Shown here piece after piece: positions 980 through 30,014 of a DNA stretch of 64,000 bases (positions within the stretch are counted from its first letter, which is position 1; every line of letters begins with the position of its first letter). The translations under genes were made by a program, and so were the position numbers. Source of the stretch: a virus. The stretch lies in IMG/VR virus record IMGVR_UViG_3300009177_000720; one strand, 5' to 3'. Below the pieces are notes generated by a model. That model saw nothing but the letters and a program-made list of their open reading frames with translations. It was not told the DNA's origin and did not search any database.

Positions 980-2236
980 TTATGTTGGAATTCCATATTC
1001 TTTAAGAGCGTTATCCAAATCATCATCTGGTTTGTTGGAAACCATTACATTTCCAGGGGTTTTGCTTCCTGGTGGAACTTGATAAGGAACGTTCTGATAT
1101 TCAGAGCCAAAATCTTTATTAGCCTTGGATTGGGCCGCAATTAAATCACTTGAGGCTTTTTCTTCAATTGATTTCGCATCTTTAAGCATCTTAAGAATTT
1201 CCGCAACGGAAGATTTAAATGGAGAAATAGCCCTTACTACATCTTCAAAATCATCTGCCAATAAAGAAGTCTTACCTCCAACTAAGTGAGTATCTTCAAC
1301 AAGAGAAGTTAAAAATCCCTTATCTTTGGTATGACGAGTTTTATAAGCAGTGGAACTGAAATTAGCTTCTACTTGATCCATGAAGCTAGACATATTATAA
1401 ATCAAAGACTGTAAATTCTTATAAGCTGCAAGAACGGTCTGAGTTTTTGGTTGTTGAGCAATTTGCATCAATTCAGATGCGTCTCTTGGCTTTTCTAGCT
1501 CTCTAATGGCTCCCTGGCTGGCATCATAGGCCGTCATAAATGCATTTAATCTAGCCTTTAAACCTTGTACGTCTTGTTTAAGCTCTTGATCATATTCATG
1601 ACCAACACCCCAAGAAACGCTGCTGGCTAAGAAGTCATCTAGTTCGCCCTTAAGTCTTTCAGCGTTCTGTTGCAAACCTTTATCAAGATTTGGTAAATGC
1701 TGATGAGCGTAAATAGCACCCAAAGCAACTGCCACAATGGCAACTATGGCTAAAGGGCCGATGGCCTCTTTCTTTAGTTGGCCCTGATTAACTTGCTCTA
1801 AACAAGTATCAGCCAATACACGTAGCTCATCTTGATTCTTATTATCAAGATCATTACCAATTCTAACAAGAGATAGAACTAATTCTTTTTCGGCATATTT
1901 GCGATGTGTAGATAGTCCATCTGGAGTCTTGTGAACGATATGTAAATTGATGTTTTGTCTCTCAATTTCGCTCTCAACAAGACCATTTAACTTATCATAG
2001 GAAGGAGATACCACTACGGAATTTGGGTGAGCAACTTCCATAATGTTCTTTTTATATTCCATGCTCTTTGGAGCATCTGGTTTGACGCCGTACAACGCTT
2101 CAATAGCGGAGGCATCCAAGGAGTCAGCTCTACCAGTTTGTTCTAGCTTTTTCTTAGCTTCGCTAGAATCATTGGAGATCATGCCTTTTTCTTGGGCTAT
2201 CTTGACAAAACTGTCGAAAATCTCACTTCTACTCAT
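980..2236 (-). CDS. Putative internal head/ejection protein with one hydrophobic helix
   Basis: 418 aa; AHP domain shared with 6336..7463; helical-hairpin motif; LKKEA followed by IGPLAIVAIVAVALGAIYA. Confidence 0.45.
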   Translation of the reverse strand: MSRSEIFDSFVKIAQEKGMISNDSSEAKKKLEQTGRADSLDASAIEALYGVKPDAPKSMEYKKNIMEVAHPNSVVVSPSYDKLNGLVESEIERQNINLHIVHKTPDGLSTHRKYAEKELVLSLVRIGNDLDNKNQDELRVLADTCLEQVNQGQLKKEAIGPLAIVAIVAVALGAIYAHQHLPNLDKGLQQNAERLKGELDDFLASSVSWGVGHEYDQELKQDVQGLKARLNAFMTAYDASQGAIRELEKPRDASELMQIAQQPKTQTVLAAYKNLQSLIYNMSSFMDQVEANFSSTAYKTRHTKDKGFLTSLVEDTHLVGGKTSLLADDFEDVVRAISPFKSSVAEILKMLKDAKSIEEKASSDLIAAQSKANKDFGSEYQNVPYQVPPGSKTPGNVMVSNKPDDDLDNALKEYGIPT

Positions 2237-2264
2237 TGTTTGCTCACCATAGATTAATTGTAAT

Positions 2265-2279
2265 AATATGCCCGGTTAT
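2265..2279 (-). promoter_or_regulatory. Putative late promoter motif ATAW-N4-GCATA (ATAACCGGGCATATT)
   Basis: Recurs upstream of genes at 7494, 19604, 25106 and on the + strand at 57636. Confidence 0.5.
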
Positions 2280-3379
2280 GCCACTTTTTCGGCTACGTCA
2301 TCAATAAACATGTCCACAATCTGCTTTTTGGAAGTAAAATATCTAGGGATTAAAACAATATTGTCTCCCTCTGATACTTTGTTATTTGAAACAATTCTAC
2401 TCTTTATAACTTGAAAGGCTGGAGAAGATCGAATGAGAGCTTCTTTACCTTCTAGTCCAGAATATACTTCTTTAGCAAACATAACTAACATGGTCTCAAT
2501 AGAAGACTCATTATTTGGAACAGCTTCTGCCCAAACACGATTTACATTTTTTTGTTCATTTCGGTAACTTGTATTAACTTTGAATTTAGTTTGTGTGGAA
2601 GTTGGGGCCGCTGGAGCGGTAGTTGGGGCTGCCGTATCACTAACAGGCTTTCCTTTTTGAACTGTATTGTCCAATGCGTTTGGTCTATCCAAAAACTTAT
2701 TGACCACATCACCAGCAACCATTAAACCTGCTGATGCAATAGCGATCTTAAATACCCATCCCAATACTTTACCTAATAGGTTAGCGGTTGCACCCTTACG
2801 ACTACTGAACATTGAAAAGAAAGGAGATGCAGCTTCTTTTGTAAAACTCATGCTGTCTTTTTCAAATTCAATCATTGCTAGTTTAAGAAGCTTCGCATCA
2901 CGAAATAATTGTCTGCTTGATTTCTTCTGCTCTAGCATTTGGGCGGCTTTCTCAGCTTCATCTTCAGTTGGTGCTTTATTATGCTCCTGAACAGATGATG
3001 CAACCATTCCATCAACTTCTGATGAGGAAACTTGTTTCCCACCACTTAGCGCTGACTTTAATTTATCCCAAATAGACTGAAGAATACTACCAACATCAAT
3101 ATGGAATATTCTCATAGCTAAACCAAAAAGTATTCCAAGCCAACCCAAGCCCATTGCACGAAAGGCAATGGAAATGGCGCCTGGAGCTAATAGATTTAAT
3201 AAGCTACCAGTTTTGTCTTCCGGATTAATGTTGTTGCCAACATACCCTTTAACTTTATCAATCAGTGATGAAATAGCACTACCCGCTTGAGCAGTTTTAG
3301 ACAAACCCTCATCGGATAATAGTGTTTCCACTATCATAGTATCAACTATAAAACTAATTTCACTGTTGGTGTGGGTCAT
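2276..3379 (-). CDS. Putative membrane-interacting virion protein
   Basis: 367 aa; hydrophobic segments (GAISIAFRAMGLGWLGILFGLAM; LLGKVLGWVFKIAIASAGLMVAG); LSKTAQ and FTKEAA motifs. Confidence 0.45.
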   Translation of the reverse strand: MTHTNSEISFIVDTMIVETLLSDEGLSKTAQAGSAISSLIDKVKGYVGNNINPEDKTGSLLNLLAPGAISIAFRAMGLGWLGILFGLAMRIFHIDVGSILQSIWDKLKSALSGGKQVSSSEVDGMVASSVQEHNKAPTEDEAEKAAQMLEQKKSSRQLFRDAKLLKLAMIEFEKDSMSFTKEAASPFFSMFSSRKGATANLLGKVLGWVFKIAIASAGLMVAGDVVNKFLDRPNALDNTVQKGKPVSDTAAPTTAPAAPTSTQTKFKVNTSYRNEQKNVNRVWAEAVPNNESSIETMLVMFAKEVYSGLEGKEALIRSSPAFQVIKSRIVSNNKVSEGDNIVLIPRYFTSKKQIVDMFIDDVAEKVA

Positions 3380-4983
3380 CTTTTAAACCTAATAACCTCA
3401 TTGGAACGATCTTGTAAATCGTCCAATTTTCTCATATTATCTTTGGCAATAGTAGCTTGATTACTAATAACTGCCATTTCTTGGCTATTGAAGTTTGCTT
3501 TTTCAGAAGTTGCATCGCGAGAGATGGCATATGTCTGATAGAACAATAGAATAGTAGCTTCGGTAATTTGTACAATCTTCTTTAGTGTATCAAGAAAGGT
3601 GACATATTGACGAGGCGGATCTTTTAGCCAGGTGGTAATTCCCTCTGGTCCAACTAGTAATCCAAAATTAACCTTAGACATTTTCAAATAATCTGAGTTA
3701 ATTAATCCAATTTCTTGAACTACAGCAGTTGCAGAGCTTTGGACTTGAGCGGCCTGTGGGCTCTTAGCATTTCGTGTAAGGGCCTTGTAAGCTTCAAAGA
3801 ACTGAAGGATTCTATTCAAATCAACAGCTTCCAAAGTTAGAGGCATTGCTCTGATAACAGGATCCAACATTTCTGGTGTAACCTGTCCGCCCTGACCTGG
3901 TTGTCCTCCTGGTTGCTGACCTGGCTGAGCGCCTGGTTGAGTAGTTCCAGGAGTGACAACAGCGCAAGGCTTTCCATTAGCTCCAGTTAACTTGCTACCA
4001 TATTCTTGAACAATTTTTAGATATTTAGCTGCTAGTTTGCTGTAATTAGCCTTTTGCTTATCAGCGGCGGCTCCATATTGAGCTAACCATTGTGCTCTAC
4101 GATACAGTACATTAACAGCAACACATGGGGCATCGCTATCAGCTTGCGTGGCGCTAATAGTAGTTGCTGGTTTCTTATCTACGGCTGGTAATACTACCTT
4201 CATATTGCTTAGCCAGGCCATAAATGCGCCAGAATCTGCAATGTCACTTGCTAGTAATTTGCGAGTAGCCCTATCAAAATGTGGGAATCCTCTAGTTCCT
4301 TCGAAGATGTCGCCTTCACCAAGAGTGTCACTCATAAATCCGTCTACAACATCCTTTGGATCAAATTCGGCCTTTTGTTCTGGCTTGGATACGGCATCAA
4401 CAGGTGGGCGCTGAGCAGTTACTAAATAACCATTTAGCTCACCAATCATTTTGCTCAACATCAATTTGGTAGCATTACTCTTTTCGTTATCTCTCAAATA
4501 CACCAAGTATTCGGTCAGTGCTTTAACGTTAGCAACGGCTGGTACCTTAATTGGACGGCGAGTTATTTCTTCTCTTGATCTATCGCTACGCATAGATTCG
4601 AAATCCCAAATATCTGGGTCATCTGCTTGCGTTGGATGTGCTTCGTCTGGGGACCAGGCAAATCTTTTACCTTCCCAAGTAAACTTTTTAGCAGCGCACC
4701 ACAAAATGAAGTCGCCAAGAGTTCTTAAATTCTCTGGAGTGGCAGTTAGATTGTTTGGATCGGCACCCTGCTCAAGACCTAAAGGGTTTCCTTTGGCGGG
4801 AGCATCGGCAGTGTTGTATTGTCTTTGTAGATTTGTAACTAAAGCATGAGCCGCATGATAAGTAAGAAAATCTGTAGGCGGAACGGTGCTCTTGGCTGCG
4901 TTCTGGGCCTCTTTAACTAAAGAGGTAGCGCCAGACACCAAAAGATCTTTTAGTAATTTTTTATCGTCATAGATGAAACTCAT
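3376..4983 (-). CDS. Hypothetical virion-region protein
   Basis: 535 aa; LVKEAQ near N-terminus; QPG-repeat linker; 4-nt overlap with the downstream gene. Confidence 0.6.
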   Translation of the reverse strand: MSFIYDDKKLLKDLLVSGATSLVKEAQNAAKSTVPPTDFLTYHAAHALVTNLQRQYNTADAPAKGNPLGLEQGADPNNLTATPENLRTLGDFILWCAAKKFTWEGKRFAWSPDEAHPTQADDPDIWDFESMRSDRSREEITRRPIKVPAVANVKALTEYLVYLRDNEKSNATKLMLSKMIGELNGYLVTAQRPPVDAVSKPEQKAEFDPKDVVDGFMSDTLGEGDIFEGTRGFPHFDRATRKLLASDIADSGAFMAWLSNMKVVLPAVDKKPATTISATQADSDAPCVAVNVLYRRAQWLAQYGAAADKQKANYSKLAAKYLKIVQEYGSKLTGANGKPCAVVTPGTTQPGAQPGQQPGGQPGQGGQVTPEMLDPVIRAMPLTLEAVDLNRILQFFEAYKALTRNAKSPQAAQVQSSATAVVQEIGLINSDYLKMSKVNFGLLVGPEGITTWLKDPPRQYVTFLDTLKKIVQITEATILLFYQTYAISRDATSEKANFNSQEMAVISNQATIAKDNMRKLDDLQDRSNEVIRFKR

Positions 4984-4994
4984 TATTTAGTTCC

Positions 4995-6335
4995 TTATGC
5001 TGTAGCATTGCCTCTAGAATTTGTGTTCAATACAGGTGTACTCATATCCGTTTTAGGCTTTGGTGGTACTGGAAGCGGCTCATTAGCTAAAGTATTCTTG
5101 ATATGTGTAGCTAATCCTGAAAGAACTTTAGCTATAATATCTGGATTCTTTATATCATTTTCATCATACTTAAGAGACTGCATCATAAACTGCCTAAAAG
5201 AAGCTTGGTCTTTAAAATTTGCCAATGAAAGCTGAGGAAAAGTATATGTTGCATTAGGGCTGCTTCCTTTATATGGAAGCGTTACATTGAATAAATTAGC
5301 TGCACCTAAATTGTTCATTACTGACTTATATTCTGGTTTGATTTGTCCGGGATCTTCTCCGCCCAATTTAGCCGTAATCATTGGTGATTGCTTGGAAATA
5401 GCAGCCTTATAAGCAGGATGATTAAGAACATACTTATAGAAATACTGATAAAAATATGATAGCTTATCAACTATCTCAGTGATTACTTCGGCACTCTTAC
5501 CCAGTTCTGCTTGAGATACTTTACTTAAAAACACATTGGATTTGGATGTTGCTGGATATTCTTTTACCTTAGGGATAACGCTAGCAAATCTTGCTAAATC
5601 CTTAGCCGTAAAAGTATGGCTAGCTTTTTGTGCAACCGTTCCCATAAAGGTAGTAATTTGCACCAACGCATCAGCTAGGGCATATGTATCCATGACTGCA
5701 TTTTGAGTTCTAAAATCCCAAACACCATCCGGAATTTTCTCTCCTGGTTTTGGAGAACCAATTCTTCGAAGGCCATCTAAAACATTATCCATCTCAATAT
5801 TATCAGTTGGTTTTTTATCAGCCCTATCCACAGCGTCTGGGTTTGGATCAAATTCTACTCCATGAATAGAAGAGCCATTCGTATACTGTTCGGCAATAAA
5901 GTCATTAAAATCTTTTCTAGGATCGTTCTCTACTAGAACTTCTTTGGTGACGGTCTTCTTAGGATTTTTCGGATCTGGAGCCTGGGTAAATTTAGTCTTG
6001 TAATCAACTGCAACTTTAGCAAAATTCTGAATTGACTTTTGCATTTCCTTAATTGCTGGTGCTGCACTTGGAGCAACAGCATGACCACCGCCACCACCAC
6101 CAGTATTCTGGCGTTGTTGGGCAGGTGCTGTTCCACCTAGCATATTTTCTGCTCCACCATAATCGGCCTTTGGAGCTGGTTGATTTGCGCCACCAGTATT
6201 ATTGGCGGGTGCCTTAACCGGTTGAACGGTCGCAGGACCAGTAGCACCAGGTGTAGCCTTAGCTTTACCTAGTTGTGCAAACTGAGCCTCTTTTTTTATT
6301 TCAGCTACAAGCTTTTTAAGTCTCTCATTACTCAT
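4995..6335 (-). CDS. Hypothetical virion-region protein
   Basis: 446 aa; IKKEAQ then a Gly/Pro/Ala-rich linker; DGVWDFRTQNA loosely resembles a peptidoglycan-binding DG-x-W-G-x-x-T motif. Confidence 0.6.
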   Translation of the reverse strand: MSNERLKKLVAEIKKEAQFAQLGKAKATPGATGPATVQPVKAPANNTGGANQPAPKADYGGAENMLGGTAPAQQRQNTGGGGGGHAVAPSAAPAIKEMQKSIQNFAKVAVDYKTKFTQAPDPKNPKKTVTKEVLVENDPRKDFNDFIAEQYTNGSSIHGVEFDPNPDAVDRADKKPTDNIEMDNVLDGLRRIGSPKPGEKIPDGVWDFRTQNAVMDTYALADALVQITTFMGTVAQKASHTFTAKDLARFASVIPKVKEYPATSKSNVFLSKVSQAELGKSAEVITEIVDKLSYFYQYFYKYVLNHPAYKAAISKQSPMITAKLGGEDPGQIKPEYKSVMNNLGAANLFNVTLPYKGSSPNATYTFPQLSLANFKDQASFRQFMMQSLKYDENDIKNPDIIAKVLSGLATHIKNTLANEPLPVPPKPKTDMSTPVLNTNSRGNATA

Positions 6336-7463
6336 TTAAGCCCCTGCATTTCCGCCTAGAGCGCTTCTGATTTCACTAAATAATGAATTAGCTTTATTTT
6401 TAACACTTTGCATGTAAGGTTCATCAAAATCAAATCCCGGAGAAAACTTATCATAAATTAAGTTTCCCAAACCTCGCTTCATATTATTGAGTGAGCTAAG
6501 AATTTCTGTGAACGAATTTGCTTTTCCAATAGCTGACTTTCCAAGATGTCCTGTCTTAAAGTTTCCACCAACCTCAGAAAAAGTAACTTTGCTTTGTTCA
6601 ATATCATCAACATTCTTTAATCTTTGTAACTCTAAAGCTCTTGCTTTATCAAAAGCAGATTTACATGCTTGCATATACTCACTTACGAAAGTAACTAAAT
6701 ATTCCTTACCGGTTTTAACGGCTGGTGCTACTTCTTTAGGAAATCTATCATCTGATGCTAGTTGAGCAAGTTGATCCAATAAAGTTACTACTTTACCAAG
6801 TGGTCCAATAGCTCCACCCAAAGTTTCACTGATGTATCTTGCATTTGCTCTGTTACCATCACTCCAAGGTGGGTTAGAAATTAACTTCATCTCAAGAGGA
6901 TCTGTTTTAGGAGCTGGTCCCAAATCAAGTTTGAAAGGAAGTGTTGGCCCGTAGTTTGGACGAGGCTTAGGATCAGGATAAGGTTTCCAATCTTGTCCTA
7001 AAACCATTTTCACCGCATTAACAATTTCAGCAGAAGAGGCAAGTTTACCGGTTGGCATCTTGTCAATCATTTTGATATTTTGAAGATGTTGGTCTAGAAT
7101 GGTTTCAAACACAGCTTCATCGGCATCTACGCCTTCAAGCTTGTGACTTCCCTTTGGGTGAGCCTCCTCAACCAAGTCTTCGCCCTTTTCTTTGGAAGTT
7201 TGATAAAGGGTATCGGCCTGCTTAAAGGCCATAAATTTGGTTTCAACTTCATCAGCATACTTGTCAAATCCGGCCTCTCTAAGGCCGACAGAAAGCTTAA
7301 TAAGATTAGCCGTAAGCGTAGATGAAGGGGTTAGATCGGCCTTCTTAGTAATAGAGGCAGTCTTAACAAGGTCTTGTTCCTTTACAAGGCCCTTTTCCCT
7401 TGCAACCTTCTCTAAAGAGCGCATCACAGCGGAATCTTGAAATTTTACATGCTTAAAAGTCAT
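6336..7463 (-). CDS. Hypothetical virion-region protein (AHP-domain paralog of 980..2236)
   Basis: Start moved to MTFKHV (GAGG RBS); LVKTAS, helical hairpin, EEAHPKG...KMPTG. Confidence 0.6.
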   Translation of the reverse strand: MTFKHVKFQDSAVMRSLEKVAREKGLVKEQDLVKTASITKKADLTPSSTLTANLIKLSVGLREAGFDKYADEVETKFMAFKQADTLYQTSKEKGEDLVEEAHPKGSHKLEGVDADEAVFETILDQHLQNIKMIDKMPTGKLASSAEIVNAVKMVLGQDWKPYPDPKPRPNYGPTLPFKLDLGPAPKTDPLEMKLISNPPWSDGNRANARYISETLGGAIGPLGKVVTLLDQLAQLASDDRFPKEVAPAVKTGKEYLVTFVSEYMQACKSAFDKARALELQRLKNVDDIEQSKVTFSEVGGNFKTGHLGKSAIGKANSFTEILSSLNNMKRGLGNLIYDKFSPGFDFDEPYMQSVKNKANSLFSEIRSALGGNAGA

Positions 7464-7493
7464 AAGTAGCCTCAATAGGTGGATTTATTCTAT

Positions 7494-7508
7494 AATATGC
7501 GAGATTAT
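7494..7508 (-). promoter_or_regulatory. Putative late promoter motif (ATAATCTCGCATATT)
   Basis: Intergenic copy of ATAW-N4-GCATA about 30 nt upstream of a start codon. Confidence 0.5.
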
Positions 7509-7553
7509 AGAAAGCTTCTACTAAATAAAAGAATATGCAGCTAAATTACTGCC

Positions 7554-8243: not shown

Positions 8244-8288
8244 GAGAATCCTTTTCTACGTATACCGCTCTCATACCTATATAACAGA

Positions 8289-9368
8289 TTAGTCGCTATC
8301 CTCAAAGGTTTCACCTGAACTACCATCGTGAATTGATGATGGTTTTTCATCAATTTCAGCATTCAAAATGTCATCAGATTGAGCATCATCCATTACAATA
8401 AGACCTTCTAAATCACCAAAATCTGGTCTTGGCTTTGGTCTGCTGGATGGTTGTCTGACAGTTGGAGGTGGCTCTTCGATGCCCTCTTCCATCATTTTAT
8501 GAGCCTTCCATTTCTTGTAAAATTCATCAAAAGATTTTGGTTGAGGAACGTCAACATTATTATCATCAGCCATATTGAATTCAGTGCCGTGATGCTTAAG
8601 GTTTTCCACCATTTTCTCTGGCGTCAATCCCTTAGTATGCCAATCACTCACTGAAAGCGGATTCTTTGGCTTATGTGGCTTTCCTCTAACATCATTATCA
8701 TCAAGCCCTAATTCTTGAGCAATGCTCTTGAAAACTAATTCATCTGGACTTGGCTTATCATCTTGCTTTGGTTGCTTGAGAAGACTTTGCATCTCAATTT
8801 CTTGACCGGGTTGAACTCCGACTGGACCAGGGTTAGCCATCCATTGAGAAACATTTTGTTGAAAATTTTCAGATTCGGATGGTCTATTCGGATCAATTGG
8901 AGCCATTGGATTCTCGATCCATGACATGAATCTCTGAGGAGAGCCCTCTGGATTCATTAATTCGGCAGCTTCTTCTTCACTCATAAGATTATGTCTACCA
9001 ATGAAAGAAGCAATTTCTTTATCAGTATATCCTAATCTTCTAAATGCAGTATTTACTCTAGCTTTAGAAAAAGCATCACCCTTACCTAATCCTTTTAGAT
9101 CGGCTTGGGTTACACCATTTTCCATCAATGATTGCATTGATGGCATCATCTTTACTTTAGTATCATGCTGAGCGGCAATTTTAGATAAAATCTGAAGAAC
9201 TTGTTCTGCCTTAGCAGTCATGCCAGCCTCTTCAAAAATTTGAGCCGCAGAATGAAGATACTCCACTGCCTGAACAAGGCTATTCATGCCTTGCTTTTTT
9301 TCATGAGAGTGTAGCTCGCGCTGCATTCCATGGATTAGCTCATTTTCGAAAAGACTTTTTTTGATCAT
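8289..9368 (-). CDS. Hypothetical head-region protein with N-terminal helical-hairpin module
   Basis: First 65 aa are clearly paralogous to the whole 9380..9607 protein; acidic Pro-rich remainder. Confidence 0.65.
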   Translation of the reverse strand: MIKKSLFENELIHGMQRELHSHEKKQGMNSLVQAVEYLHSAAQIFEEAGMTAKAEQVLQILSKIAAQHDTKVKMMPSMQSLMENGVTQADLKGLGKGDAFSKARVNTAFRRLGYTDKEIASFIGRHNLMSEEEAAELMNPEGSPQRFMSWIENPMAPIDPNRPSESENFQQNVSQWMANPGPVGVQPGQEIEMQSLLKQPKQDDKPSPDELVFKSIAQELGLDDNDVRGKPHKPKNPLSVSDWHTKGLTPEKMVENLKHHGTEFNMADDNNVDVPQPKSFDEFYKKWKAHKMMEEGIEEPPPTVRQPSSRPKPRPDFGDLEGLIVMDDAQSDDILNAEIDEKPSSIHDGSSGETFEDSD

Positions 9369-9379
9369 TATTCCTCAAA

Positions 9380-9607
9380 TTAAGAAGTCTTGCCGGAAAG
9401 CTGTTGAGCCAATCCCTGCAAGACTTCAGTTACTTCATCAGCTTGTTCGGTCATGCCGGCCTGATCAAAGATCTCGGCAGCAGCATTTAGATAATCAGCA
9501 GCTTGTGCTAGCTTACTAAATCCATGCTTATCTTCAACTTGTTTTGCAACAAGTTGCTTTTCCATCGAATGATAGATCTCGTCTTCAAAGCTGCTTTTTT
9601 TAAACAT
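9380..9607 (-). CDS. Stand-alone helical-hairpin module protein (75 aa)
   Basis: MFKKSSFEDEI...AADYLNAAAEIFDQAGMTEQADEV; paralog of the 8289..9368 N-terminus. Confidence 0.7.
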   Translation of the reverse strand: MFKKSSFEDEIYHSMEKQLVAKQVEDKHGFSKLAQAADYLNAAAEIFDQAGMTEQADEVTEVLQGLAQQLSGKTS

Positions 9608-9621
9608 AGGTTACCTCAGAA

Positions 9622-10353
9622 TTACTTCTTAGAAGAAGAGGAAGACTTAGATGCCTTCTCTTTTTCCTTGGCAGCCTTTTCCTTAGCCTTTTCCTTGTCA
9701 GCTTTTTCCTTGGCCTTAGCCTTTTCCTTAGCTGCCTTGTCCTTAGCCATTTGGGTATCACGCTTCTCTTTTTCCTTAGAAGCTTTTTCCTTGGCCTTTT
9801 CCTTAGATGCCTTATCCTTAGAATCTTTCTTGGAATCCTTTTCCTTCTTCTTGGCTTCAACAACCATAGAAGCTAGCTTCAAACTGAAAGCAGCGGATTT
9901 TTCCATTCCAACAGAGTCAAGGGCGGCAGAAGCAGTTAGCAAGCTGTCAATAGCAACATCGAAAGCTGCACTGGAATCCATGTCGTCAGCGTAAGAGCTG
10001 TCGTCAGAGTCATCCTTCTTTTTCTTGGCATCTTGGTCATCAGCACTTGCAGAGTCGCTGCTTGAAGATGAAGATTCTTCCTTCTTCTTTTTCTTAGCAT
10101 CGTTGTCATCTGCAAAGAAGCTGTCGTCAGCGCTGCTAGAATCAGAGGAGTCATCCTTCTTCTTCTTTGCATCCTGGTCGTCAGCCATAGCAGAGTCACC
10201 ACACTTGCAGGCGTCGCTTCCGCACTTTGGGCACTTTGCATCATTTTCATCTGATGCAAACTTGTATTGAGTATTGAACAAAGATTTGTGGGCTTCGCTC
10301 TTTAGAACTGCATCCATTGTTGCAGCGACAAAATCTGATACACTTTTAGTCAT
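9622..10353 (-). CDS. Highly charged low-complexity protein (possible internal DNA-binding/core protein)
   Basis: CPKC-x4-CKC; ADDxDAKKKK repeats; KEKA-rich tail; AGAGGA RBS. Confidence 0.6.
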   Translation of the reverse strand: MTKSVSDFVAATMDAVLKSEAHKSLFNTQYKFASDENDAKCPKCGSDACKCGDSAMADDQDAKKKKDDSSDSSSADDSFFADDNDAKKKKKEESSSSSSDSASADDQDAKKKKDDSDDSSYADDMDSSAAFDVAIDSLLTASAALDSVGMEKSAAFSLKLASMVVEAKKKEKDSKKDSKDKASKEKAKEKASKEKEKRDTQMAKDKAAKEKAKAKEKADKEKAKEKAAKEKEKASKSSSSSKK

Positions 10354-10382
10354 AATATCCTCTATTTATTTTGTTGTATTGC

Positions 10383-13300
10383 TTAGAACATTCTCTTGGA
10401 AGTCTTAGCAAGTGCTGCGGACAATTGAGACCAATCATCTTCTGCTGAGACAGCAGTATTGATTTCACCAGAACCAATTACGCCAACTTGTGGTAGACGA
10501 CCGGCAGTTCTACGTAGAGGTTGATGCTTTGCAACTACTCTCTTAAGAGTTTCGAAGTTTGCTTCGTTGAAGCTCATTAGCTCATCAACGTGAGCGGAGA
10601 TAACATTTCTGTCATTAGCAACTAAGCCACGGTCAACCATTTCATAGGTCATCTCGTAAGCTCTGGCCATCTTGACCTTGAACTTGTTAAGTTCTTCTTC
10701 AAGTTGAGCCTTAACGTGCTCCTTGACTAGTTCGCTTGCGAACTCAGATCCACCGTCTACTTGACCGTAGAACTTCTTGTAGTAAGAAACTGCATCCTTA
10801 TCCAAACCTTCAGCTACTAGAGCGTCCAAATCGGATGGGTCAAGCTTTCCTTCAGAAACTAGTCTGTGGATTGCTTCTGCTTCCTTACGAACCTTAGGTG
10901 GAGCCTTTGCAAGTTCCATCATAGCCTGGTTGACTTCTGGTAAGGTTTCGACCTTTCCTAGATTATCAGATGGCTTTACATCAAGTTCAGTCTGGCCATC
11001 AGCAAGCTTATCGGCTGCATCAAGCATGTCGCTAAACTTAGCGTGAGACATATCTTGAATTTCACCGTCATCTTGCTTGCCTAGTGCATCGGCAGCTAGC
11101 TTGGCACGAAGTGCGGCACGACCTTCTCTGGAATCAAAGGAAGCCTGAACAGTTACTTCGGTACCTGGCTTGACATCTAGACCCTTCTTCAACTCTTCTG
11201 GAGTTGCCATTAGGTCATTTGCGTCATCAACGGCCATGCCAGTCATTTCAGCTAATTCATCATGTGCTTCGCCCATGTGATCATTATCATCATCAGCCAT
11301 TAATTCCTTGACAGCATCCAAATCGGAGTTGGTGTCAGAAATCATGGCCATCAAGTCATCGCCATTGTTGGCGTCTAGTTCGCCTGTCATATTCTCTCCT
11401 TCAGCTAATGCTTCAAGTTCTGCTTCAATTTCTGCGCGCTTGACAATAGCTTTGGTTCCACGAGCATATTTGACGAAAGCGGTCATCAATTTGAATCCAT
11501 CTGCTACGGCAGACTTGGCTTCATTTAGCGCATCTTCAACAATAGTACCAACAAACTCTTGGTTAGAGTTAGTTACAGCGCCCTTGTCGTAAAGACCAGA
11601 GATCATGTCAAGCTCTTGTGCATGGTCATTTAGGTTAGCAACTGCTTCCTTCATGGCATGGGTAAGTGCGCCATTAAGTTCTTTTCTCAATCCGTTTAAG
11701 GTTGAGGTGCTAAAGGATGCTGCTGCGCCCATTTCTGGAGCAGAAGCGCCTTCCATCTCGCCCATTTCGGCTTGTTCACCAGTTAATGCTCTAACAGCTT
11801 CAACAAGGTCTGAACTTAGGTCTCTAACTTTTTCTGCCAAATCAGCAGCGGCTGCCTTTGGATCACCAGACTTGCCAGTGTCTTCGGCTGGAGGTGCACC
11901 TGCATCAGGAGCTGGTGCAGAAGAATCGGCTGGAGGTGGAGCACCTGCGTCAGCGGCTGGAGGTGGAGGAGCAGCCTGTGCACTCTTTACAAGTGCGGCT
12001 ACCTTCTCAACTCCACTAGTCTTTACCTTCTCAAGTAAGCTAGTTCCAAATTCCTTAGTAGCGATACTTCCGTATAGCTTGCTTGGACGACCACCAGATA
12101 GATCATTAACAGAGGCGGTTAGAATAAGTTTGTCACCACGGTAAACTTCCCAAGCACTGTCGCCTAGGTTACGGGTACCATCTTCATTGGTAGCGTAAAC
12201 GAACTTGGCACTTAATGCGGAAGCTCTACGTAGCATTTCCTTACGCTTTAACTCATCAGAGGTTTCAGCGGATTGTGGGGATGGGTGCATACCATCGACT
12301 GGGCCAACACCTGGGAATGGCTTTTGACCAACCATGTGCTTGTCGTCTCTCTCACGAAGGACGTACTCAAGCTTGTCAACTGGATACTTTGGCTTGCCTG
12401 GAGTTGGAGTTCCTGGGTTGTTGCCATCACCGTTTTGGAAGTAAGCAGTCTTGTTTTCAAGAGCTTGCTTAGCAAGGTTCACGATTGCAGAACGGCGAGC
12501 AGCTCTCTCTTCGGATTCAGCACGAGCAAGCATCTTCTTACGTTGTAGTTCGTCAGAAGGGTCGGCGGAATCTGGAGATGGGTGCATACCATCTACGGAG
12601 CCAACTTCTGGAAATGGGGATTGACCCACCATTTGCTTATCCTCTTTTTCACGAAGTTGCTCGTTGAGAGGATCTTTTGGATACTTGGCTTGACCTGGGG
12701 TAGGCTCGTTTACGCCACCAGCGCCTTGATAATAACCCTGCTTATTAATATTTGTACCTGACATATTTTCCTCTTGTTTGTTTGTAGAAGTGTTTGCTAA
12801 CTTATCCAAGCTTTCTTTCATTTGGCTCAACTTGGTCTCGATGGCCGTTGTGACCTCTCGAAGTTCAGCGATAGGGTCCACCCCTACTTCAGCGGTCGCG
12901 TATCTTGCATGTGGGGGAGCCAATCCAGAATCAGTACTTGGAATTTCCTCCAAGCCTTGATCCGATGCCAAATCATTAGTATCTTTTTCAGAAATTTTAG
13001 CAGAGGCATTAATCTCGCTTAATTTCGCAAAAGCTTTATCAACGTCTTCCTTGAACTTGGCAAGGTCGGTTGAGTTTACTGTAAATTGTGCACTGCCTCC
13101 ACCTTCATGACCTTTAGGATCATTAACAGTTAAAGTGGCGGAGAATGATAAATCTGCTATTCTGTTAAGCTCTTCTTGCTTACTCTCGACATAGCTGTTT
13201 AGTGTATTTGCAGCAGCAATAATATGTTTAATATTAGCTTTTGGATCTGCACCATTTACAACAATGGATAATTCAATTGGGTTTAAATCTACGTTAATTT

Positions 13301-13955
13301 CACCATAGCAACTCTTACGTCTCATATGGTCACAGAAGTCAGCTTCTGTACGGGCTACCTTGGCACAATCTGAACAGATGGCCTTTCCAACAGCGGTACC
13401 CATGGACACACAGTTAGAAACTCCGGTAGCTACTTGTCTTGCTAATTGTGGATACCCGGCCTTGTCTAAGGCACATAGAGCAATTACTCTCTTGAGATTG
13501 CGGTCATAATAGGTATCAACAATAAAGCCTCTTACATGATCTACTGAACTTGATTTATGATCAATGCAAAGAGGCTTTCCGACCCATTTCCTATAAGCTC
13601 TTACTAATTCTTCCTCTGGAAAGATATCTCCGTTGGAATTCTTATAAGGCTTAATGCTAGGGTCATTACTCATCCAGCGCCAAGTACCACCAGCTTTATC
13701 CCAGCCTACTTGGACAGTCTCTCCTTTAGCGTTTAGCTTTGGAGTTCCATCATCATTAAGGCAAGATGCTTCAGCGGCATGCATCATGACAGCAGAGAAG
13801 TATAAAAAGTCTTCTGCCTTTGGAGCAACCTTCTTTAGGTTGGCTGCAAACTTTTTAAAGTTCTCCAAAATTTCAGGGCTGACAGCAGGAAGACACGACT
13901 CCGTGGCCTCTACTCTGCTAATCTCAATCAGTTCACCTAGTTTTACAAATGACAT
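10383..13955 (-). CDS. Prohead (maturation) protease fused to a long scaffold-like region
   Basis: N-terminal NGDIF...GKPLCIDH...RGFIVD...VSMG...ELSIVVNGADPKA matches HK97/assemblin-fold prohead proteases (His/Ser), with a Cys/His insert; C-terminal acidic coiled coils. Confidence 0.75.
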   Translation of the reverse strand: MSFVKLGELIEISRVEATESCLPAVSPEILENFKKFAANLKKVAPKAEDFLYFSAVMMHAAEASCLNDDGTPKLNAKGETVQVGWDKAGGTWRWMSNDPSIKPYKNSNGDIFPEEELVRAYRKWVGKPLCIDHKSSSVDHVRGFIVDTYYDRNLKRVIALCALDKAGYPQLARQVATGVSNCVSMGTAVGKAICSDCAKVARTEADFCDHMRRKSCYGEINVDLNPIELSIVVNGADPKANIKHIIAAANTLNSYVESKQEELNRIADLSFSATLTVNDPKGHEGGGSAQFTVNSTDLAKFKEDVDKAFAKLSEINASAKISEKDTNDLASDQGLEEIPSTDSGLAPPHARYATAEVGVDPIAELREVTTAIETKLSQMKESLDKLANTSTNKQEENMSGTNINKQGYYQGAGGVNEPTPGQAKYPKDPLNEQLREKEDKQMVGQSPFPEVGSVDGMHPSPDSADPSDELQRKKMLARAESEERAARRSAIVNLAKQALENKTAYFQNGDGNNPGTPTPGKPKYPVDKLEYVLRERDDKHMVGQKPFPGVGPVDGMHPSPQSAETSDELKRKEMLRRASALSAKFVYATNEDGTRNLGDSAWEVYRGDKLILTASVNDLSGGRPSKLYGSIATKEFGTSLLEKVKTSGVEKVAALVKSAQAAPPPPAADAGAPPPADSSAPAPDAGAPPAEDTGKSGDPKAAAADLAEKVRDLSSDLVEAVRALTGEQAEMGEMEGASAPEMGAAASFSTSTLNGLRKELNGALTHAMKEAVANLNDHAQELDMISGLYDKGAVTNSNQEFVGTIVEDALNEAKSAVADGFKLMTAFVKYARGTKAIVKRAEIEAELEALAEGENMTGELDANNGDDLMAMISDTNSDLDAVKELMADDDNDHMGEAHDELAEMTGMAVDDANDLMATPEELKKGLDVKPGTEVTVQASFDSREGRAALRAKLAADALGKQDDGEIQDMSHAKFSDMLDAADKLADGQTELDVKPSDNLGKVETLPEVNQAMMELAKAPPKVRKEAEAIHRLVSEGKLDPSDLDALVAEGLDKDAVSYYKKFYGQVDGGSEFASELVKEHVKAQLEEELNKFKVKMARAYEMTYEMVDRGLVANDRNVISAHVDELMSFNEANFETLKRVVAKHQPLRRTAGRLPQVGVIGSGEINTAVSAEDDWSQLSAALAKTSKRMF
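12222..12749 (-). repeat. Two ~78-aa direct repeats within the protease-scaffold (approx. 12519-12749 and 12222-12458)
   Basis: Both copies contain K-x-[AG]-Y-[YF]-Q...PTPG..KYP.D...DK.MVGQ.PFP.VG.VDGMHPSP.SA..SDEL.RK.ML.RA. Confidence 0.9.
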
Positions 13956-13957: not shown

Positions 13958-14116
13958 TTATCTCCCTGATTTCTTCATTTCTGAAGGATCAGCTTCTTCC
14001 TCAGATGTCTTGATTACTTTTTTGGATAGATCTTTAGCAGCTTTTTTCTGCGCGTCAGTCATCTCTTCGGTTTCGACAACTGATAAAATTTTTCCATCAC
14101 CGTGTTTTATAAACAT
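13958..14116 (-). CDS. Small protein, 52 aa (MFIKHGDGKILSVVETEEMTDAQKKAAKDLSKKVIKTSEEEADPSEMKKSGR); not in ORF track
   Basis: GGAGAG RBS; stop 2 nt before the protease start; fills the gap in the operon. Confidence 0.7.
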   Translation of the reverse strand: MFIKHGDGKILSVVETEEMTDAQKKAAKDLSKKVIKTSEEEADPSEMKKSGR

Positions 14117-24144: not shown

Positions 24145-24145
24145 G

Positions 24146-25130: not shown

Positions 25131-25138
25131 CCGCAGTT

Positions 25139-26698
25139 TTAAATATTCCATTTATCTTCATAGATGAGACTTTCCGGTCCCAAAGTTCCATAATCTGGAT
25201 TCATTTCATCAATTATGGTATCTTCTTCTTCCGAATGGTTAAACCCATCTGGCAAGCCGTATAAATCTGAATCTTGTTCATGAGATAAGTATTTATCCAT
25301 TATTTGGCTTAATAATTCTTCATCTACCGAATCACCATCTTCCTCATAGTCGCGGCCATAATTTAAGGTAGTTGGTGGTTTACCCTCAAAGTCAGGGTAG
25401 AATAGGGGAGGCTCGCCTCCACCAATTTCGGTGGCGTGCATAAAACTGGAGTTATCTCCTAGATTTGGGAATCCAGGGAAAGTACTCATATCACCAGGTT
25501 CACCTTCAGGTCCAAGCATAAAAAGCCTCTGAAAAGAAGCGTCGTCATGCTCAGGAGGAAGGGTCTCAATTTCATCATCTATTGGAAAATCAATAGCAGT
25601 TTTCATAATTTGCGAAATTAATTCGGCACGTGCTTTGATTTGAGGATTTTTCTTGGTAATTTCCCCACTGTCCTCAATCCAGGAATCATCAGCCTTGTAC
25701 TTGTCCTTCATCTTCTTGCGCTTGGCCTTTAGAAATTCAGAGACGCTTTTATACTTTTCCATGGAGTGCCAACCGGCTCCGGGGCCGATGTGCTCGAATC
25801 CAGGGATGTCGTAAAGGTCGTAATTACGATAGAAGGGTTCCTTGAAGCGCGTTTGATTGACAATGGCTGGGTCAGACTTGTATTTTTTCTTTTTAGGAGC
25901 TGGCTCATTAACACCACCCCCGCCTTGGAAATAAGCCTGCTTTGGCATCCCCTTAGCTTTCATATAGTATGGTTGAACTACTTCGGTAATTGGAATCTCT
26001 TCCCATAAATTCATTTTGCTAATATAGAAAGCGGCCTTATCAGCATCACGATTAAATGCTTCATTCAATTTTTCAGTCATTGCTTTTTCACTAGCAATTT
26101 TAACTGAAGATGGATTTCTAGTAACGTAATCAATGATACTTTGATCAATATCAAAATCTAATTTGGAAGCTAAATAAATAGCTCTAATTACTCTATTCTT
26201 GTTAGAAGTTAAAGTAATTTCTGGAGACAAACAAGTTTTGATTTTTCTTTCCTTAATATCTTGAAAGCCTTTGTGAGTTGGATCTATTAGATTTTTAAGA
26301 TCTAAAGACAATAGTAGAGCGTTACAGGTAAAATCCCTGCTAAACATCTCTTTTTGCATCTCAGTTGGGCGAGCAATTCCTTGCTTAGCAAGAATGGCAT
26401 CAATATTTGGTACATTAAAATTGGAAGAAAAGTCCATTTTAAATGAACCAATGTAAATGGAACTATGACCATCATCATGATCTCTTCTAGTTACATTGTA
26501 TTTTTTGCCTAAAATAGTGCCGAATTCTGAAGATAAATATCCAACTGTCTTGTCACCAGTTGTAATGTCTAAATCCGAAATATTCTCCAAGTGCTTGAGA
26601 TAGCGATCTCTAGGCGTACCACCGCAGATATAGGCTTCAGATGAGCCTATTTTCTTTTGGGTATCCTGCATTTGTTGGAGAAGTTCTCGAAGTTTCAT
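25139..26698 (-). CDS. Class II (CCA-adding/poly(A) polymerase family) nucleotidyltransferase with long acidic C-terminal extension
   Basis: YICGGTPRD, DLDITT (catalytic DxD), SRDFTCNAL, IDPTHKGFQDI, NRVIRAI; extension begins with a scaffold-like peptide. Confidence 0.85.
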   Translation of the reverse strand: MKLRELLQQMQDTQKKIGSSEAYICGGTPRDRYLKHLENISDLDITTGDKTVGYLSSEFGTILGKKYNVTRRDHDDGHSSIYIGSFKMDFSSNFNVPNIDAILAKQGIARPTEMQKEMFSRDFTCNALLLSLDLKNLIDPTHKGFQDIKERKIKTCLSPEITLTSNKNRVIRAIYLASKLDFDIDQSIIDYVTRNPSSVKIASEKAMTEKLNEAFNRDADKAAFYISKMNLWEEIPITEVVQPYYMKAKGMPKQAYFQGGGGVNEPAPKKKKYKSDPAIVNQTRFKEPFYRNYDLYDIPGFEHIGPGAGWHSMEKYKSVSEFLKAKRKKMKDKYKADDSWIEDSGEITKKNPQIKARAELISQIMKTAIDFPIDDEIETLPPEHDDASFQRLFMLGPEGEPGDMSTFPGFPNLGDNSSFMHATEIGGGEPPLFYPDFEGKPPTTLNYGRDYEEDGDSVDEELLSQIMDKYLSHEQDSDLYGLPDGFNHSEEEDTIIDEMNPDYGTLGPESLIYEDKWNI

Positions 26699-26706
26699 TC
26701 ATTTGT

Positions 26707-28536
26707 TTAGGCTGGAGGTGGTGGAGCTTTCGGAGGGGCTGCTACTGGTGGAGGAGCGGCTGGGGCACCTAAGTCTTCTTCAATTTCAACTTCTGGTGTC
26801 TCTTTAGCATTACCGGCTAATTCAGCAGCTTCCTGATCTTTTCTCATCTGCTTACGAGCCTTTTCTTTTTCTTCATCAGATTGTAGCTTGTTTTTAATAC
26901 CAGCTACTTCTGGACTCTCGGGTACGTTACCGCCCTTAAGATCAACGTCCTTAGTGGATAGAGCACCACGTAGTTTTGAAAGAATATCTTCTACACGGCT
27001 AGAGATATAGTTGTTGGATTCTAGAGCTTTGTTTTGAGCTTCAGAAAGAGATGGGAAATAAGATGCTAATCCCTTGCTGTCTAACATCATATCTACAAGA
27101 GCTAGTCTTCTAGGAATTTCTCTAACTTTAAATACCTTAGCCAAGTCTTCTAACTCAGCTACGATATCGGAGATGGAAACATTAGCCATCATAGAGTCCA
27201 TCTTAGCGTTAAAGTCGCCACCACCCGTATCCGTCTTTTCACCTTCTGGTGGGGCGGTAGGGGCAGCAATTTCATCTTCTGTTACTTCAATAGGCTCTTC
27301 TGCAACCTCTGGAGCGGCAGGCTCTTCAGCGGCAGGTGGGGCCACTGGTGCTGGATTTAGTGGAGCTGGTGCAGGAGTAGTCGTCATTGGTTCAGCAGCC
27401 TGAGCCTCTGTAACTAGTAACTCATCATCCGCTTCGTTAACCTCAAGAGAATCTTCAACCTCTAAATCATCTTCTACCTTGCTGTCATCGCTTGGAGAGA
27501 AGTTTACCTTTTCCAATCCCTTTAGGAATTTTTCAATTCCAGGAGGCGCACTCTTCTCGCTTTGAGGCATGGTAACATTTCCATCTGGTTGAGCTGGGGT
27601 ACCAGCACCGCCTGATGGGACGCCTGGATTTCCGGCCCCGGTTGGATCTGGTGGTGGCGTTGGAGTTGGAGCTTGGGCTACAGAATATAGAACGCCAGCA
27701 GCTTTAGTAAAACCTTGTTTGATTAAAACATTAGCCTGACGGATAATCATATCTTCATACAATCTAGTAGAAGAACTAATCTTATTTACCATTTGAATTT
27801 TCTTCTTAAGTTGATAAATAGATTCTAATAGACTTTCAAATTCTTTTCCTGCGAATAAGTGGCCGTCTTTAGAACGAAGCAATTTTTCGGCAGAGTCTAA
27901 ACGACCAATAATTTTGTTTCTTTGCTTCTCAATGATGTCTCTTCTTTCAGACTCATCAGTAGCGCGACTCTTGGCAAAATCGATATCTGCTCCGGAAACT
28001 TCAGGGGCAGGGGCAGGCGACTTATCTGCATCGATAGGTAGGGCATATCCTGGAAGTTCTGGATTTTGGTACCACTTTTTTGGACCAGACTCCTCGAACC
28101 ATAGTTGTGCAAATTTATACTTCATATGATCTCCCGCCTCATAGAATTTAACCCAGTTAAGAAAATCAAAAGTTTCCATGACATTCCAACCAGAAGTTAC
28201 TCTGCGAATAGCTGTTACTCTGTTTTCGCCAGACTTTTCTTTACGGTAGATATCACTAATGGCCTGTAACCACTTCTGGGTGTCATGCTGTCCAGGGACG
28301 TGCATGTACACCTCTGTGTTTGGATAAGCCTTTCTTTTGCTAAAATCCAATCGTGGAATTGATTCAGGATCAAACTTTCCATAATCAATACCATATTGAT
28401 CAAAAAATTCCATTAACTTTTCAAGTTTAGGCTGCATCTCCTCCGTCACCTCTAATTCTTTATCAGAATAAGGGCGCTTGGCCAAATCTGGTTTTGGCGG
28501 ATCCTGTAGTTTTGAAAAGCGATTGATGGAACTCAT
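26707..28536 (-). CDS. Hypothetical head-region protein
   Basis: 609 aa; two hairpin-like motifs; YKFAQ, YSVAQ and LVTEAQ each precede Pro/Glu-rich linkers. Confidence 0.6.
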   Translation of the reverse strand: MSSINRFSKLQDPPKPDLAKRPYSDKELEVTEEMQPKLEKLMEFFDQYGIDYGKFDPESIPRLDFSKRKAYPNTEVYMHVPGQHDTQKWLQAISDIYRKEKSGENRVTAIRRVTSGWNVMETFDFLNWVKFYEAGDHMKYKFAQLWFEESGPKKWYQNPELPGYALPIDADKSPAPAPEVSGADIDFAKSRATDESERRDIIEKQRNKIIGRLDSAEKLLRSKDGHLFAGKEFESLLESIYQLKKKIQMVNKISSSTRLYEDMIIRQANVLIKQGFTKAAGVLYSVAQAPTPTPPPDPTGAGNPGVPSGGAGTPAQPDGNVTMPQSEKSAPPGIEKFLKGLEKVNFSPSDDSKVEDDLEVEDSLEVNEADDELLVTEAQAAEPMTTTPAPAPLNPAPVAPPAAEEPAAPEVAEEPIEVTEDEIAAPTAPPEGEKTDTGGGDFNAKMDSMMANVSISDIVAELEDLAKVFKVREIPRRLALVDMMLDSKGLASYFPSLSEAQNKALESNNYISSRVEDILSKLRGALSTKDVDLKGGNVPESPEVAGIKNKLQSDEEKEKARKQMRKDQEAAELAGNAKETPEVEIEEDLGAPAAPPPVAAPPKAPPPPA

Positions 28537-29294
28537 AACTCGTTGATTTTCTTGTTGATGGTTTCGTTAAGGAGTTTTGCTTCGGCAAGCTTCATTTCTT
28601 GTGAAGGTGCTGTTTCAGGGGTTGGAGGCTTCAATTTGGACATTTTTTCATTAAAAACTTCCAAAAAGTACATAGAAGTCTCTAAATCCATCTGAGACAA
28701 AACTTCTTTGATTACATCATGAAATACAGAAATATGCTGATCTACGACCTGCAAAGTCACGTTATGTTGAATAATTTGGTCAGGAGTGCGCCCTTCCTTC
28801 CATTTATGATACTTATCCAATAAGTTACCCAAAGCATCAATGTATTCAATCAATACACGCTCAACCTTGGTATTAATATCGTTTGGATTATCCTGCACAA
28901 TATCATAAATTTGGGCAACACGAGCCTCAACATTGATGGCCATCTTAGCCATAATGGTATCAATATCTAATTCGTTATTGGCAATCTTTACTAAAGCATC
29001 TTTATACGATGGATTACTCTTAACAGCCAAATCTAATTGATCGGTTGAATTGGTAGTAATAGCTCCCTTTACTTTTGAAAGGTCTTGCATTACATCATTA
29101 TAAAAATCCAAATAAGTATTTTGGAATGACTTAATCAGTTTTTCTGATAAAACAAATTTAGCTTCGCTAACGTTTGTGTACTTTGCTTTTAACCAATCAT
29201 GGATATCGGTTGGTGAGCTACCAATTACCAACTTAGAGATAATTTCGTCTTTATCTGGATGCTCCAGAATTTTCTTGTAAGTTAGTTTGCTCAT
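28533..29294 (-). CDS. Hypothetical protein; candidate terminase small subunit
   Basis: N-terminal HTH-like segment (HPDKDEIISKLVIGSSPTDIHDWL) followed by helical oligomerisation-type region. Confidence 0.35.
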   Translation of the reverse strand: MSKLTYKKILEHPDKDEIISKLVIGSSPTDIHDWLKAKYTNVSEAKFVLSEKLIKSFQNTYLDFYNDVMQDLSKVKGAITTNSTDQLDLAVKSNPSYKDALVKIANNELDIDTIMAKMAINVEARVAQIYDIVQDNPNDINTKVERVLIEYIDALGNLLDKYHKWKEGRTPDQIIQHNVTLQVVDQHISVFHDVIKEVLSQMDLETSMYFLEVFNEKMSKLKPPTPETAPSQEMKLAEAKLLNETINKKINEL

Positions 29295-29303
29295 TTAATT
29301 CCT

Positions 29304-30014
29304 TCATGGCTTATTATATCCTAATCTGCCTTCACGGGTATCAAAGATGGCATGATAAGGAACATTAAGACCTTGAGTCTGTTGAGCAACATCACCACCA
29401 GGAACCTTAGCTCCGTTATTTAATTCAAAACCGGTTTCAAAGTTGTAAGACTTCTTATCTAATTCGCATTGCCACATGTGCTCGCCTACGCGCGCAATCT
29501 GGACGCCTGGATGATCTGGACAGTATCTAGTGCTCAAAGGAGCCTCTAAAATATCGTACTGCTTGGTCATTTGGCTCTTATCAATTGCTTTTTCTGATTC
29601 GCCAATCTTATTGGTATCGTGAAGCTCTTTACGAGGATTCTCGTACTTCTTCTTTAACTCTTCGGTTCTAGCGTCTAACAAATCCTTGCGACCTTCAACT
29701 GGAGGAGCAGCAATAGATAGAAGTAACTCATCTAGAACGGAAGCTTGCTTTTTAAGAGCTGGGTCACCAGAGGCATCAAAGGCCGCAGCTAGGGCAGCAA
29801 TTTCTTCAATGGCTTGTGGGGTAATTTTGGACTCTTCAGGTGGTTCCATTTCGCTGACTTGTTCAGCAGCGTTCTTTAATAGAGCGGCAGCTAGAACACA
29901 AGATTCAGCTACAACCTTCATGCTACCCTCGTGGTATTCGGCTAGCAGGACGGCTTCATTGTTTGGGCTTTCCAACCAGGAAGCGATTGCGCTTAACATT
30001 TCAGAAATTCTCAT
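29304..30014 (-). CDS. Hypothetical protein with helical hairpin and C-terminal Cys/His motif
   Basis: IAALAAAFDASGDPALKKQASVLDELL; LSTRYCPDHPG...WQCELD. Confidence 0.6.
   Translation of the reverse strand: MRISEMLSAIASWLESPNNEAVLLAEYHEGSMKVVAESCVLAAALLKNAAEQVSEMEPPEESKITPQAIEEIAALAAAFDASGDPALKKQASVLDELLLSIAAPPVEGRKDLLDARTEELKKKYENPRKELHDTNKIGESEKAIDKSQMTKQYDILEAPLSTRYCPDHPGVQIARVGEHMWQCELDKKSYNFETGFELNNGAKVPGGDVAQQTQGLNVPYHAIFDTREGRLGYNKP

Follow-up and report, generated by a model that had tools for sequence, protein, structure and literature searches.

The 64,000-nucleotide stretch of viral DNA catalogued as IMG/VR record IMGVR_UViG_3300009177_000720 (hereafter the window) carries all of its long open reading frames (ORFs) on the minus strand, and raises the question of whether a short helical module is shared by the proteins of its head-gene region, by how many of them, and to what end. 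It had been proposed from the sequence (the original prediction) that a helical hairpin recurs in at least seven head-region proteins, once as a stand-alone gene of 75 amino acids (aa), and that it acts as a removable docking tag. We find that there is indeed a shared helical module: it is a predicted three-helix domain, which makes up the whole of gene 9380 and the N-terminus of gene 8289, and probably, in diverged form, the N-terminus of gene 6336 (window genes are named here by the lower of their two coordinates, and all are on the minus strand). Our observations concern the protein family defined by this domain, including the placement of the domain at the N-terminus, the number of copies per genome, the neighbouring genes and the helices predicted for it.

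The relationship that anchors the family lies between 9380 (9380..9607), a short form of 75 aa that consists of the entire domain, and 8289 (8289-9368, 359 aa), a long form in which the same domain occupies aa 1-68 (9165..9368). BLASTP aligns the product of 9380 with the N-terminus of 8289 (residues 1-67) with an E-value of 1e-15 over 69 aa at 45% identity, and hhalign gives the pair a probability of 99-100% (99.9% for the long-form N-terminus); in an all-versus-all BLAST of 70 window proteins this was the sole relationship among the genes in which the module had been listed. By these comparisons 9380 and the N-terminus of 8289 are clear, unambiguous paralogues. An AlphaFold2 (AF2) model of 9380 based on a 48-sequence alignment (mean predicted local distance difference test score, pLDDT, 79) places helix 1 at aa 4-28, helix 2 at aa 30-49 and helix 3 at aa 53-73, with a Gly51-Met52 turn between helices 2 and 3. 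The hairpin described originally corresponds to helix 2, the Gly-Met turn and helix 3, and is only part of the unit, which is an N-terminal domain of ~70 aa. The stand-alone gene is genuine: a GAGG ribosome-binding site of its own lies 6 nucleotides upstream of the ATG, relatives keep the gene, and 52 distinct short-type module sequences occur in related loci. The tail that comes after the domain in 8289 is poorly conserved, except for one block at ~aa 240-270, and its C-terminal end is acidic.

The relatives of the window are metagenomic contigs of 180-480 kb. We fetched 80 related loci by way of the well-conserved neighbouring gene 7554 (7554-8243, 80-92% identity), and built orthologue families for each gene of the cluster. 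In these loci the short form is ~70-75 aa long, occasionally longer, and the tail of the long form is again poorly conserved; five whole related genomes (350-480 kb) have exactly two significant copies each, in adjacent genes. An exhaustive search with a 48-member profile returned 716 representative clusters at E<=1e-3, of which 401 remained at E<=1e-10; 9380 and 8289 themselves match the family profile over helices 1-3 at E 1e-35 and below. In nearly all of the best 150 representatives, which are proteins of 69-382 aa, the match begins at residue 1 (range 1-7). Since tails are absent or present in both subfamilies, the domain is the constant part, and the members of the family share their head and vary in their tails. 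The positions kept across short and long forms (Met15, Leu19, Ala36, Leu40, Ala43, Ile46, Gly51, Leu63) are mostly hydrophobic or small. Scans of all cluster proteins gave no Pfam or PHROGs match for the module genes; a Foldseek search of the domain model against the PDB had no match at E<=0.001 and one against BFVD returned only unnamed family members, while Atlas feature searches yielded no usable lead.

The spread of the module within a genome was followed in a complete related genome assembled from fetched stretches (481 kb, 713 ORFs). A pooled hairpin profile matched four cluster genes only in this proteome (the next score was 4.8 bits), and the full-domain profile added a 60-aa remote ORF (E 1e-4) and then the orthologue of gene 9622 (E 0.06). 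The expectation that the module would be confined to head-assembly genes was thus upheld, as the matches fall in the cluster and are not spread over non-virion proteins. The 60-aa ORF (G001:343026-343208, plus strand), which lies far from the head cluster and matches helices 2-3 with 17.8 bits, may be a third, remote family member.

How many further proteins of the window carry the domain was assessed gene by gene. The start of 6336 (6336-7475) is most likely the ATG at 7461-7463, where the orthologue consensus begins, rather than the TTG at 7475 chosen by the ORF lister, and profile-profile comparison places a putative diverged copy of the domain at its N-terminus (aa 5-88 of the listed ORF, 7212..7463). 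The N-terminal 36-aa profiles of 6336 and 9380 align start to start with P 2.4e-5, a score ~6 standard deviations (sd) above column shuffles; the pair ranks third of 210 family pairs, behind two known paralogue pairs, and the best reversed control reaches 2.2e-3. The hairpin of 6336 is in register with the domain (P 0.0016 and 0.0046 in the two directions), and its helix-1 and hairpin segments are collinear with those of the domain (1-63 versus 6-81). On these comparisons, 6336 probably begins with a diverged copy of the domain. Helix 1, which had been missing from the list of copies, is the most diagnostic part for 6336, and the case for this gene rests on it; the hairpin alone is weak evidence, because it looks like a generic alpha-hairpin of the tetratricopeptide repeat (TPR) type. 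A conserved acidic stretch at about residues 7-10 of helix 1 is common to the short form, the long form and 6336, and may be better suited than the hairpin as a candidate functional surface.

Gene 980 (980-2236) and 6336 are full-length paralogues (hhalign probability 94%, E 1e-7, ~280 columns). The N-terminus of 980 (2168..2236) is homologous to aa 14-33 of 6336 (N-terminal profiles, P 1.5e-8), so that the N-terminal helix is common to both, and 980 has a gap opposite the 6336 hairpin. The site that had been listed in 980 (1802..1870) has no profile match, is not at the position of the 6336 hairpin, and is not supported. The two proteins also share a conserved block containing His-Pro, and a hydrophobic segment that resembles a membrane span is present near aa 160-178 of 980.

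Gene 9622 (9622-10353) encodes a scaffold-like protein of 243 aa, in which the candidate hairpin copy (aa 126-170, 9844..9978) is internal and is followed by a Lys/Glu-rich helix of ~70 aa. The hairpin shows the highest conservation of any block in the 9622 family and is, in every test, the top non-self match of the domain profile, in register. Hairpin-only profiles detect it with P 2.7e-4 (9380 family) and P 0.008 (8289), with reversed controls at best 0.1 and a score ~6.6 sd above shuffles; other profiles give weaker values (P 0.017-0.027), the full-length domain profile gives no better than P 0.023 when 150 and 121 sequences are used, and HMMER E-values are 0.06-0.11. On the strength of these profiles it is possible that 9622 carries a copy of the hairpin. 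Its N-terminal helix (aa 1-27, 10273..10353), well conserved within the family, aligns weakly with helix 1, falling on profile positions 8-34 in HMMER with a domain E-value of 2-9, which is not significant; the domain may be split in 9622 by ~100 aa of acidic/basic low-complexity sequence. The AF2 model, whose low confidence (mean pLDDT 56.6) led to its exclusion from the fold search, consists of an N-terminal helix pair, ~85 disordered residues, the hairpin (126-147, turn, 153-174) and a long Lys/Glu helix. The disordered middle contains an Ala-Asp-Asp-x-Asp-Ala-Lys4 unit 3-4 times; the conserved block in the tail of 8289 ends in Met-Ala-Asp-Asp, similar to this unit, and the Ala-Asp-Asp-type motif of the two proteins may be a shared short linear motif.

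The remaining sites were tested with the family profiles, using reversed profiles of the same families as controls; the full-domain family profile is not matched significantly by 980, 26707 or 29304. The site in 29304 (29733..29801) is marginal and is not counted as a copy: it reaches P 6e-4 with the pooled hairpin profile only, P 0.09-0.18 with single-family profiles, and E 0.0015-0.011 in the set of 70 window proteins. The first site in 26707 (27688..27747) has P 0.012-0.018, equal to the reversed controls of the same family and thus at noise level, and the second (27058..27105), with a best P of 0.19, is not supported. Other weak matches were set aside as copies: the C-terminus of 45957-46622, for which a pair hidden Markov model gave E 5e-4, a value that vanished with a 119-sequence profile (E 2.2); a 52-aa gene (13958-14116), whose consistent weak matches hhalign did not confirm (P 0.12-0.16); and the N-terminal extension of the capsid protein in related phages, likened by eye to helix 1 (hhalign P 0.03-0.26). 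The 221-aa product of 45957-46622 has a sub-threshold match to FtsH-type peptidase M41 (24.5 bits; cut-off 29.9). A protein 100% identical to the product of 29304-30014 is present in an 11-kb IMG/VR contig (L086, IMGVR_UViG_3300045391_002248), which by virtue of this identity is probably a fragment of the same phage.

All eight strings quoted in the original prediction can be found at the places given, in the minus-strand ORFs named for them. The pattern written for them is fitted strictly by one of the eight (9622) and in relaxed form by two, with 0.01-0.18 expected from shuffles. In a corrected register, shifted by one (hydrophobic-x3-[AS]-x2-[LF]-[DER]-x2-G-[MFL]-x3-A, 17 residues), the pattern fits 9380, 8289, 9622 and 6336 exactly, a result that is no independent test, since the corrected form was derived from those four copies. 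Profiles of the copies detect one another for 9380 and 8289, and for 6336 by profile-profile comparison; for 9622 the outcome is variable, for 29304 marginal, and for 980 and 26707 negative. In place of at least seven proteins there are two certain ones, one probable, one possible and one marginal, and three sites (in two proteins) at noise level. Overall, the family is real, new and widespread but lineage-restricted; its extension to seven proteins went too far, as did its interpretation as a removable tag.

The genes of the family sit in a recognizable head-gene neighbourhood. Profile scans identify the terminase large subunit (21592-23484) and the portal (19643-21514; 34% identity to gp14 of Bacillus phage G), both on the minus strand, and, further along the window, DNA polymerase III alpha, UvsX and SbcCD. 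Directly upstream of the module genes lies the gene for a 1190-aa protein with an N-terminal prohead-protease domain (10383..13955): aa 106-214 match phrog_18299, head maturation protease, with E 1e-14, and aa 35-248 are 33% identical to phage G gp19, while no Pfam family or solved structure was matched by the domain. The major capsid gene is outside the window. In relatives, a capsid gene with 55% identity to phage G gp27 comes after the orthologue of 199-849, so that here it must sit just beyond position 1. In ~60 of 67 loci the genes keep the order protease - 9622 - short form - long form - 7554 - 6336, and every supported copy of the domain lies in the stretch bounded by the genes for the prohead protease and the major capsid protein; the head region of the original prediction thus amounts to this protease-to-capsid stretch plus some genes upstream of the terminase. 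A megablast of 25 kb of the window against deposited phages matched nothing. Judging by portal, protease and capsid protein sequences, the carriers of the family are a clade of uncultivated huge phages, distant kin of phage G.

A few features of this neighbourhood are recorded here in their own right. The product of 7554-8243 (229 aa, beta-rich by eye) is the most conserved protein of the cluster (88% mean column identity over the 80 loci); it has no Pfam, PHROG or PDB-sequence match, its family profile and that of 2276 found nothing among PDB sequences, and the sole lead is a weak Atlas hint to decoration proteins of the lambda gpD type (score 0.84). Between the portal and protease genes, 14883-15653 encodes a dual-specificity/tyrosine phosphatase domain (Pfam Y_phosphatase3, E 1e-8), and 25139-26698 encodes a CCA-type nucleotidyltransferase. 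The latter (aa 242-330) shares 45-89 aa at 36-48% identity (E 5e-7) with aa 394-475 of the protease protein; because there is a second, weaker match at aa 502-580, the shared stretch looks like a repeat in the long C-terminal part of the protease protein. In two related genomes (G004 and G005) the capsid gene is matched in two pieces with ~1 kb between them, as would be expected if an element had inserted there.

The interpretation that we favour, and to which we would give about an even chance, is that the members of this family, which is specific to the lineage, are proteins of the prohead core, either scaffold or internal, and that the three-helix N-terminal domain mediates their incorporation. 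The domain would build proteins into the inside of the assembling capsid, docking by packing against other copies, the scaffold, or the inner surface of the capsid protein; the protein that consists of the domain alone would itself be a subunit of the core, a diverged copy would most likely head the 6336 family, and the helix 2-turn-helix 3 part would possibly recur as the core of 9622. We infer this head-core role, the docking function and any proteolytic removal from the position of the genes after protease and scaffold-like genes, the invariant N-terminal placement of the domain, the low-complexity charged tails, and the precedents of T4 and SPN3US. Low-complexity charged tails without enzyme domains are typical of the scaffold and internal head proteins of T4 and phiKZ-like phages. 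The T4 proteins gp67 and gp68 are very small, and the short form can be set beside them, by description only, as very small scaffolding-core subunits encoded in the head module. They are named as core proteins cut by gp21 (PMC5694885). The products of this cutting are peptides.

Closer precedents for the N-terminal placement are found in the T4 capsid-targeting sequences (CTS) and the long N-terminal propeptides of SPN3US, both considered to steer their proteins to the core of the prohead (PMC7411985, PMC5694885). The CTS of IPI-III and Alt (Mullaney and Black 1996) are thought to bind that core (PMC7411985), and like the domain they are placed at the extreme N-terminus of several head proteins, conserved between them, and encoded in a head module near the prohead protease. 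Unlike it, a CTS has 10-20 residues and is cut by gp21, whereas here the predicted domain has three helices and ~70 aa, and one gene consists of the unit alone; the two are likened by description only. In SPN3US and phiKZ the propeptides (gp53/gp54, gp47) are ~110-130 aa long, were mapped by mass spectrometry, and are cut after A/S-x-E (PMC5694885, PMC7411985). There too, head paralogues of a giant phage have diverged overall and kept their N-terminus, and the propeptides were proposed to target the prohead, but the phage lineage and the protease are different. Pfam scans of the window proteins gave no match at E<=0.01 to PF12699, that is to paralogue family A of phiKZ/SPN3US.

Several results weigh against the prohead-core interpretation or narrow it. 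The positions kept across short and long forms look structural, and would not suggest a common binding surface. The tails do not describe a tag moved onto many unrelated cargoes, as 110 of 131 fall in one BLAST single-linkage cluster in which short blocks are conserved. The relationship to 9622 is insecure, because reversed-profile controls reach P 0.002-0.007 for some profiles. Outside the clade, tblastn of 8289, 6336 and 9380 against 50,697 phage records matched none of them, and a module-profile scan of the head region of phage G, the only cultured relative, did not find the domain. Finally, profile positions 25-53 have ten matches within a 513-aa protein built from TPR-like repeats of 50 residues, and there are sub-threshold Pfam matches to ComR_TPR (10 of 48 members, best E 6.5e-4), SNAP and TPR_6/12.

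These last matches also lend themselves to a rival explanation, which we consider rather unlikely overall: only 9380 and 8289, and perhaps 6336, would be related, and the other sites would share the features that any alpha-helical hairpin tends to have in its sequence (small residues where the two helices touch, a glycine closing helix 2, then a hydrophobic residue and a helix N-cap), with no common docking function. The sequence pattern of helix 2-turn-helix 3 is alike in the domain and in TPR repeats (TPR_12, ComR_TPR, SNAP), and fold searches return only generic helical hairpins: Foldseek matches have E>2, and VIA-align wide gives common helical arrangements with Z<=6.5. To the reversed controls and the full-length P-value for 9622 given above can be added cross-family HMMER matches with E-values of just 0.06-2. 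Unlike TPR proteins, the domain has a single hairpin with a long first helix and no tandem array, and none of the TPR-type matches listed with a cut-off reaches the Pfam gathering score, all of their E-values being weak. Against a generic signature there is the behaviour of the profiles, because the best non-self matches of every single-family profile are other families of the cluster, in the right register, with scores 6 sd above column shuffles; the helix-1 segment of 6336, which is independent of the hairpin, matches start to start; and the copies lie in adjacent genes, each in the most conserved block of its family.

At the opposite end, the prohead-core interpretation can be enlarged into a more specific and quite improbable scheme, in which the three-helix domain would be a common 'address': across a clade of 350-500 kb phages, it would bring a scaffold-like protein, a pair of internal proteins and a paralogue with a tail into the prohead. 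The giant protease-scaffold protein would cut after K-x-A, and the tag-only gene would set the occupancy of docking sites as a competitor or filler.

Very doubtful, in our estimate, is the full model of the original prediction, with a removable docking tag on at least seven head proteins, a protease cut at a nearby K-x-A, and the 75-aa protein as a competitor. K-x-A is not supported as a part of the module. The motif is kept in place within the long-form, 9622 and 6336 families (45 of 61, 50 of 57 and 49 of 52, respectively), and in the long form conservation stops right after it. On the other hand, K-x-A is absent from the stand-alone form, the site cited in 980 is not conserved in place, and the distances from the turn glycine (14, 10 and 16 residues in the long form, 9622 and 6336) differ, which means that the motif has no common position in the module; it also coincides with the hydrophobic repeat of helix 3. 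The reading of K-x-A as a cleavage site is kept alive at the sequence level by two observations. Hydrophobic-x-K-x-A is enriched three-fold in the protease-to-capsid cluster (199-13955, minus strand; 29 occurrences versus 9.8 in shuffles, compared with 43 versus 28.7 elsewhere), and the capsid protein of the clade (L084, G001:256223-257236) begins with a conserved extension of 41 aa that phage G gp27 does not have and that contains such a site.

The competitor part of the removable-tag model has a precedent in the 80alpha scaffolding protein (SP) and SaPI1 CpmB, which share a capsid-binding 'helix-and-hook' and compete for one site on the capsid protein, with contacts established by cryo-electron microscopy (PMC5644958): there too a short helical element is common to different proteins. 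In those proteins the element is C-terminal, unlike the domain, which is N-terminal in 9380, 8289 and 6336, and unlike its candidate hairpin in 9622, which is internal. The scaffold of P22 likewise binds the capsid through a helix-turn-helix at its C-terminus, and differs from the domain in the same way. The model is further opposed by the listed sites themselves, of which three are at noise level and one is marginal, by a protease that matches no Pfam family or solved structure, and by the nearest cultured relative, in which the PDB chain of the phage G capsid protein spans residues 1-280 and hence gives no sign of N-terminal trimming.

That these proteins are not capsid components at all, and are for example small regulators or chaperones of late gene products lying in a head operon, would fit the presence of the non-structural-looking phosphatase and nucleotidyltransferase genes in the cluster, but appears highly improbable given a position right after the protease and scaffold-like genes that is fixed across the clade, and tails of low complexity, acidic or basic, without enzyme domains.

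The prohead-core interpretation bears on a part of phage biology that is thinly covered. Outside the lineages of T4 and phiKZ/SPN3US, little has been worked out about how huge phages assemble and fill their very large heads, and the lineage of phage G is almost without assembly genetics. What we describe is a new protein family with a plausible, inferred role, and not a new principle. A domain of ~70 aa marking the head-core proteins of a large clade known only from metagenomes would give an annotation handle for hundreds of genes now called 'hypothetical', and would also provide a testable candidate for a packaging tag.

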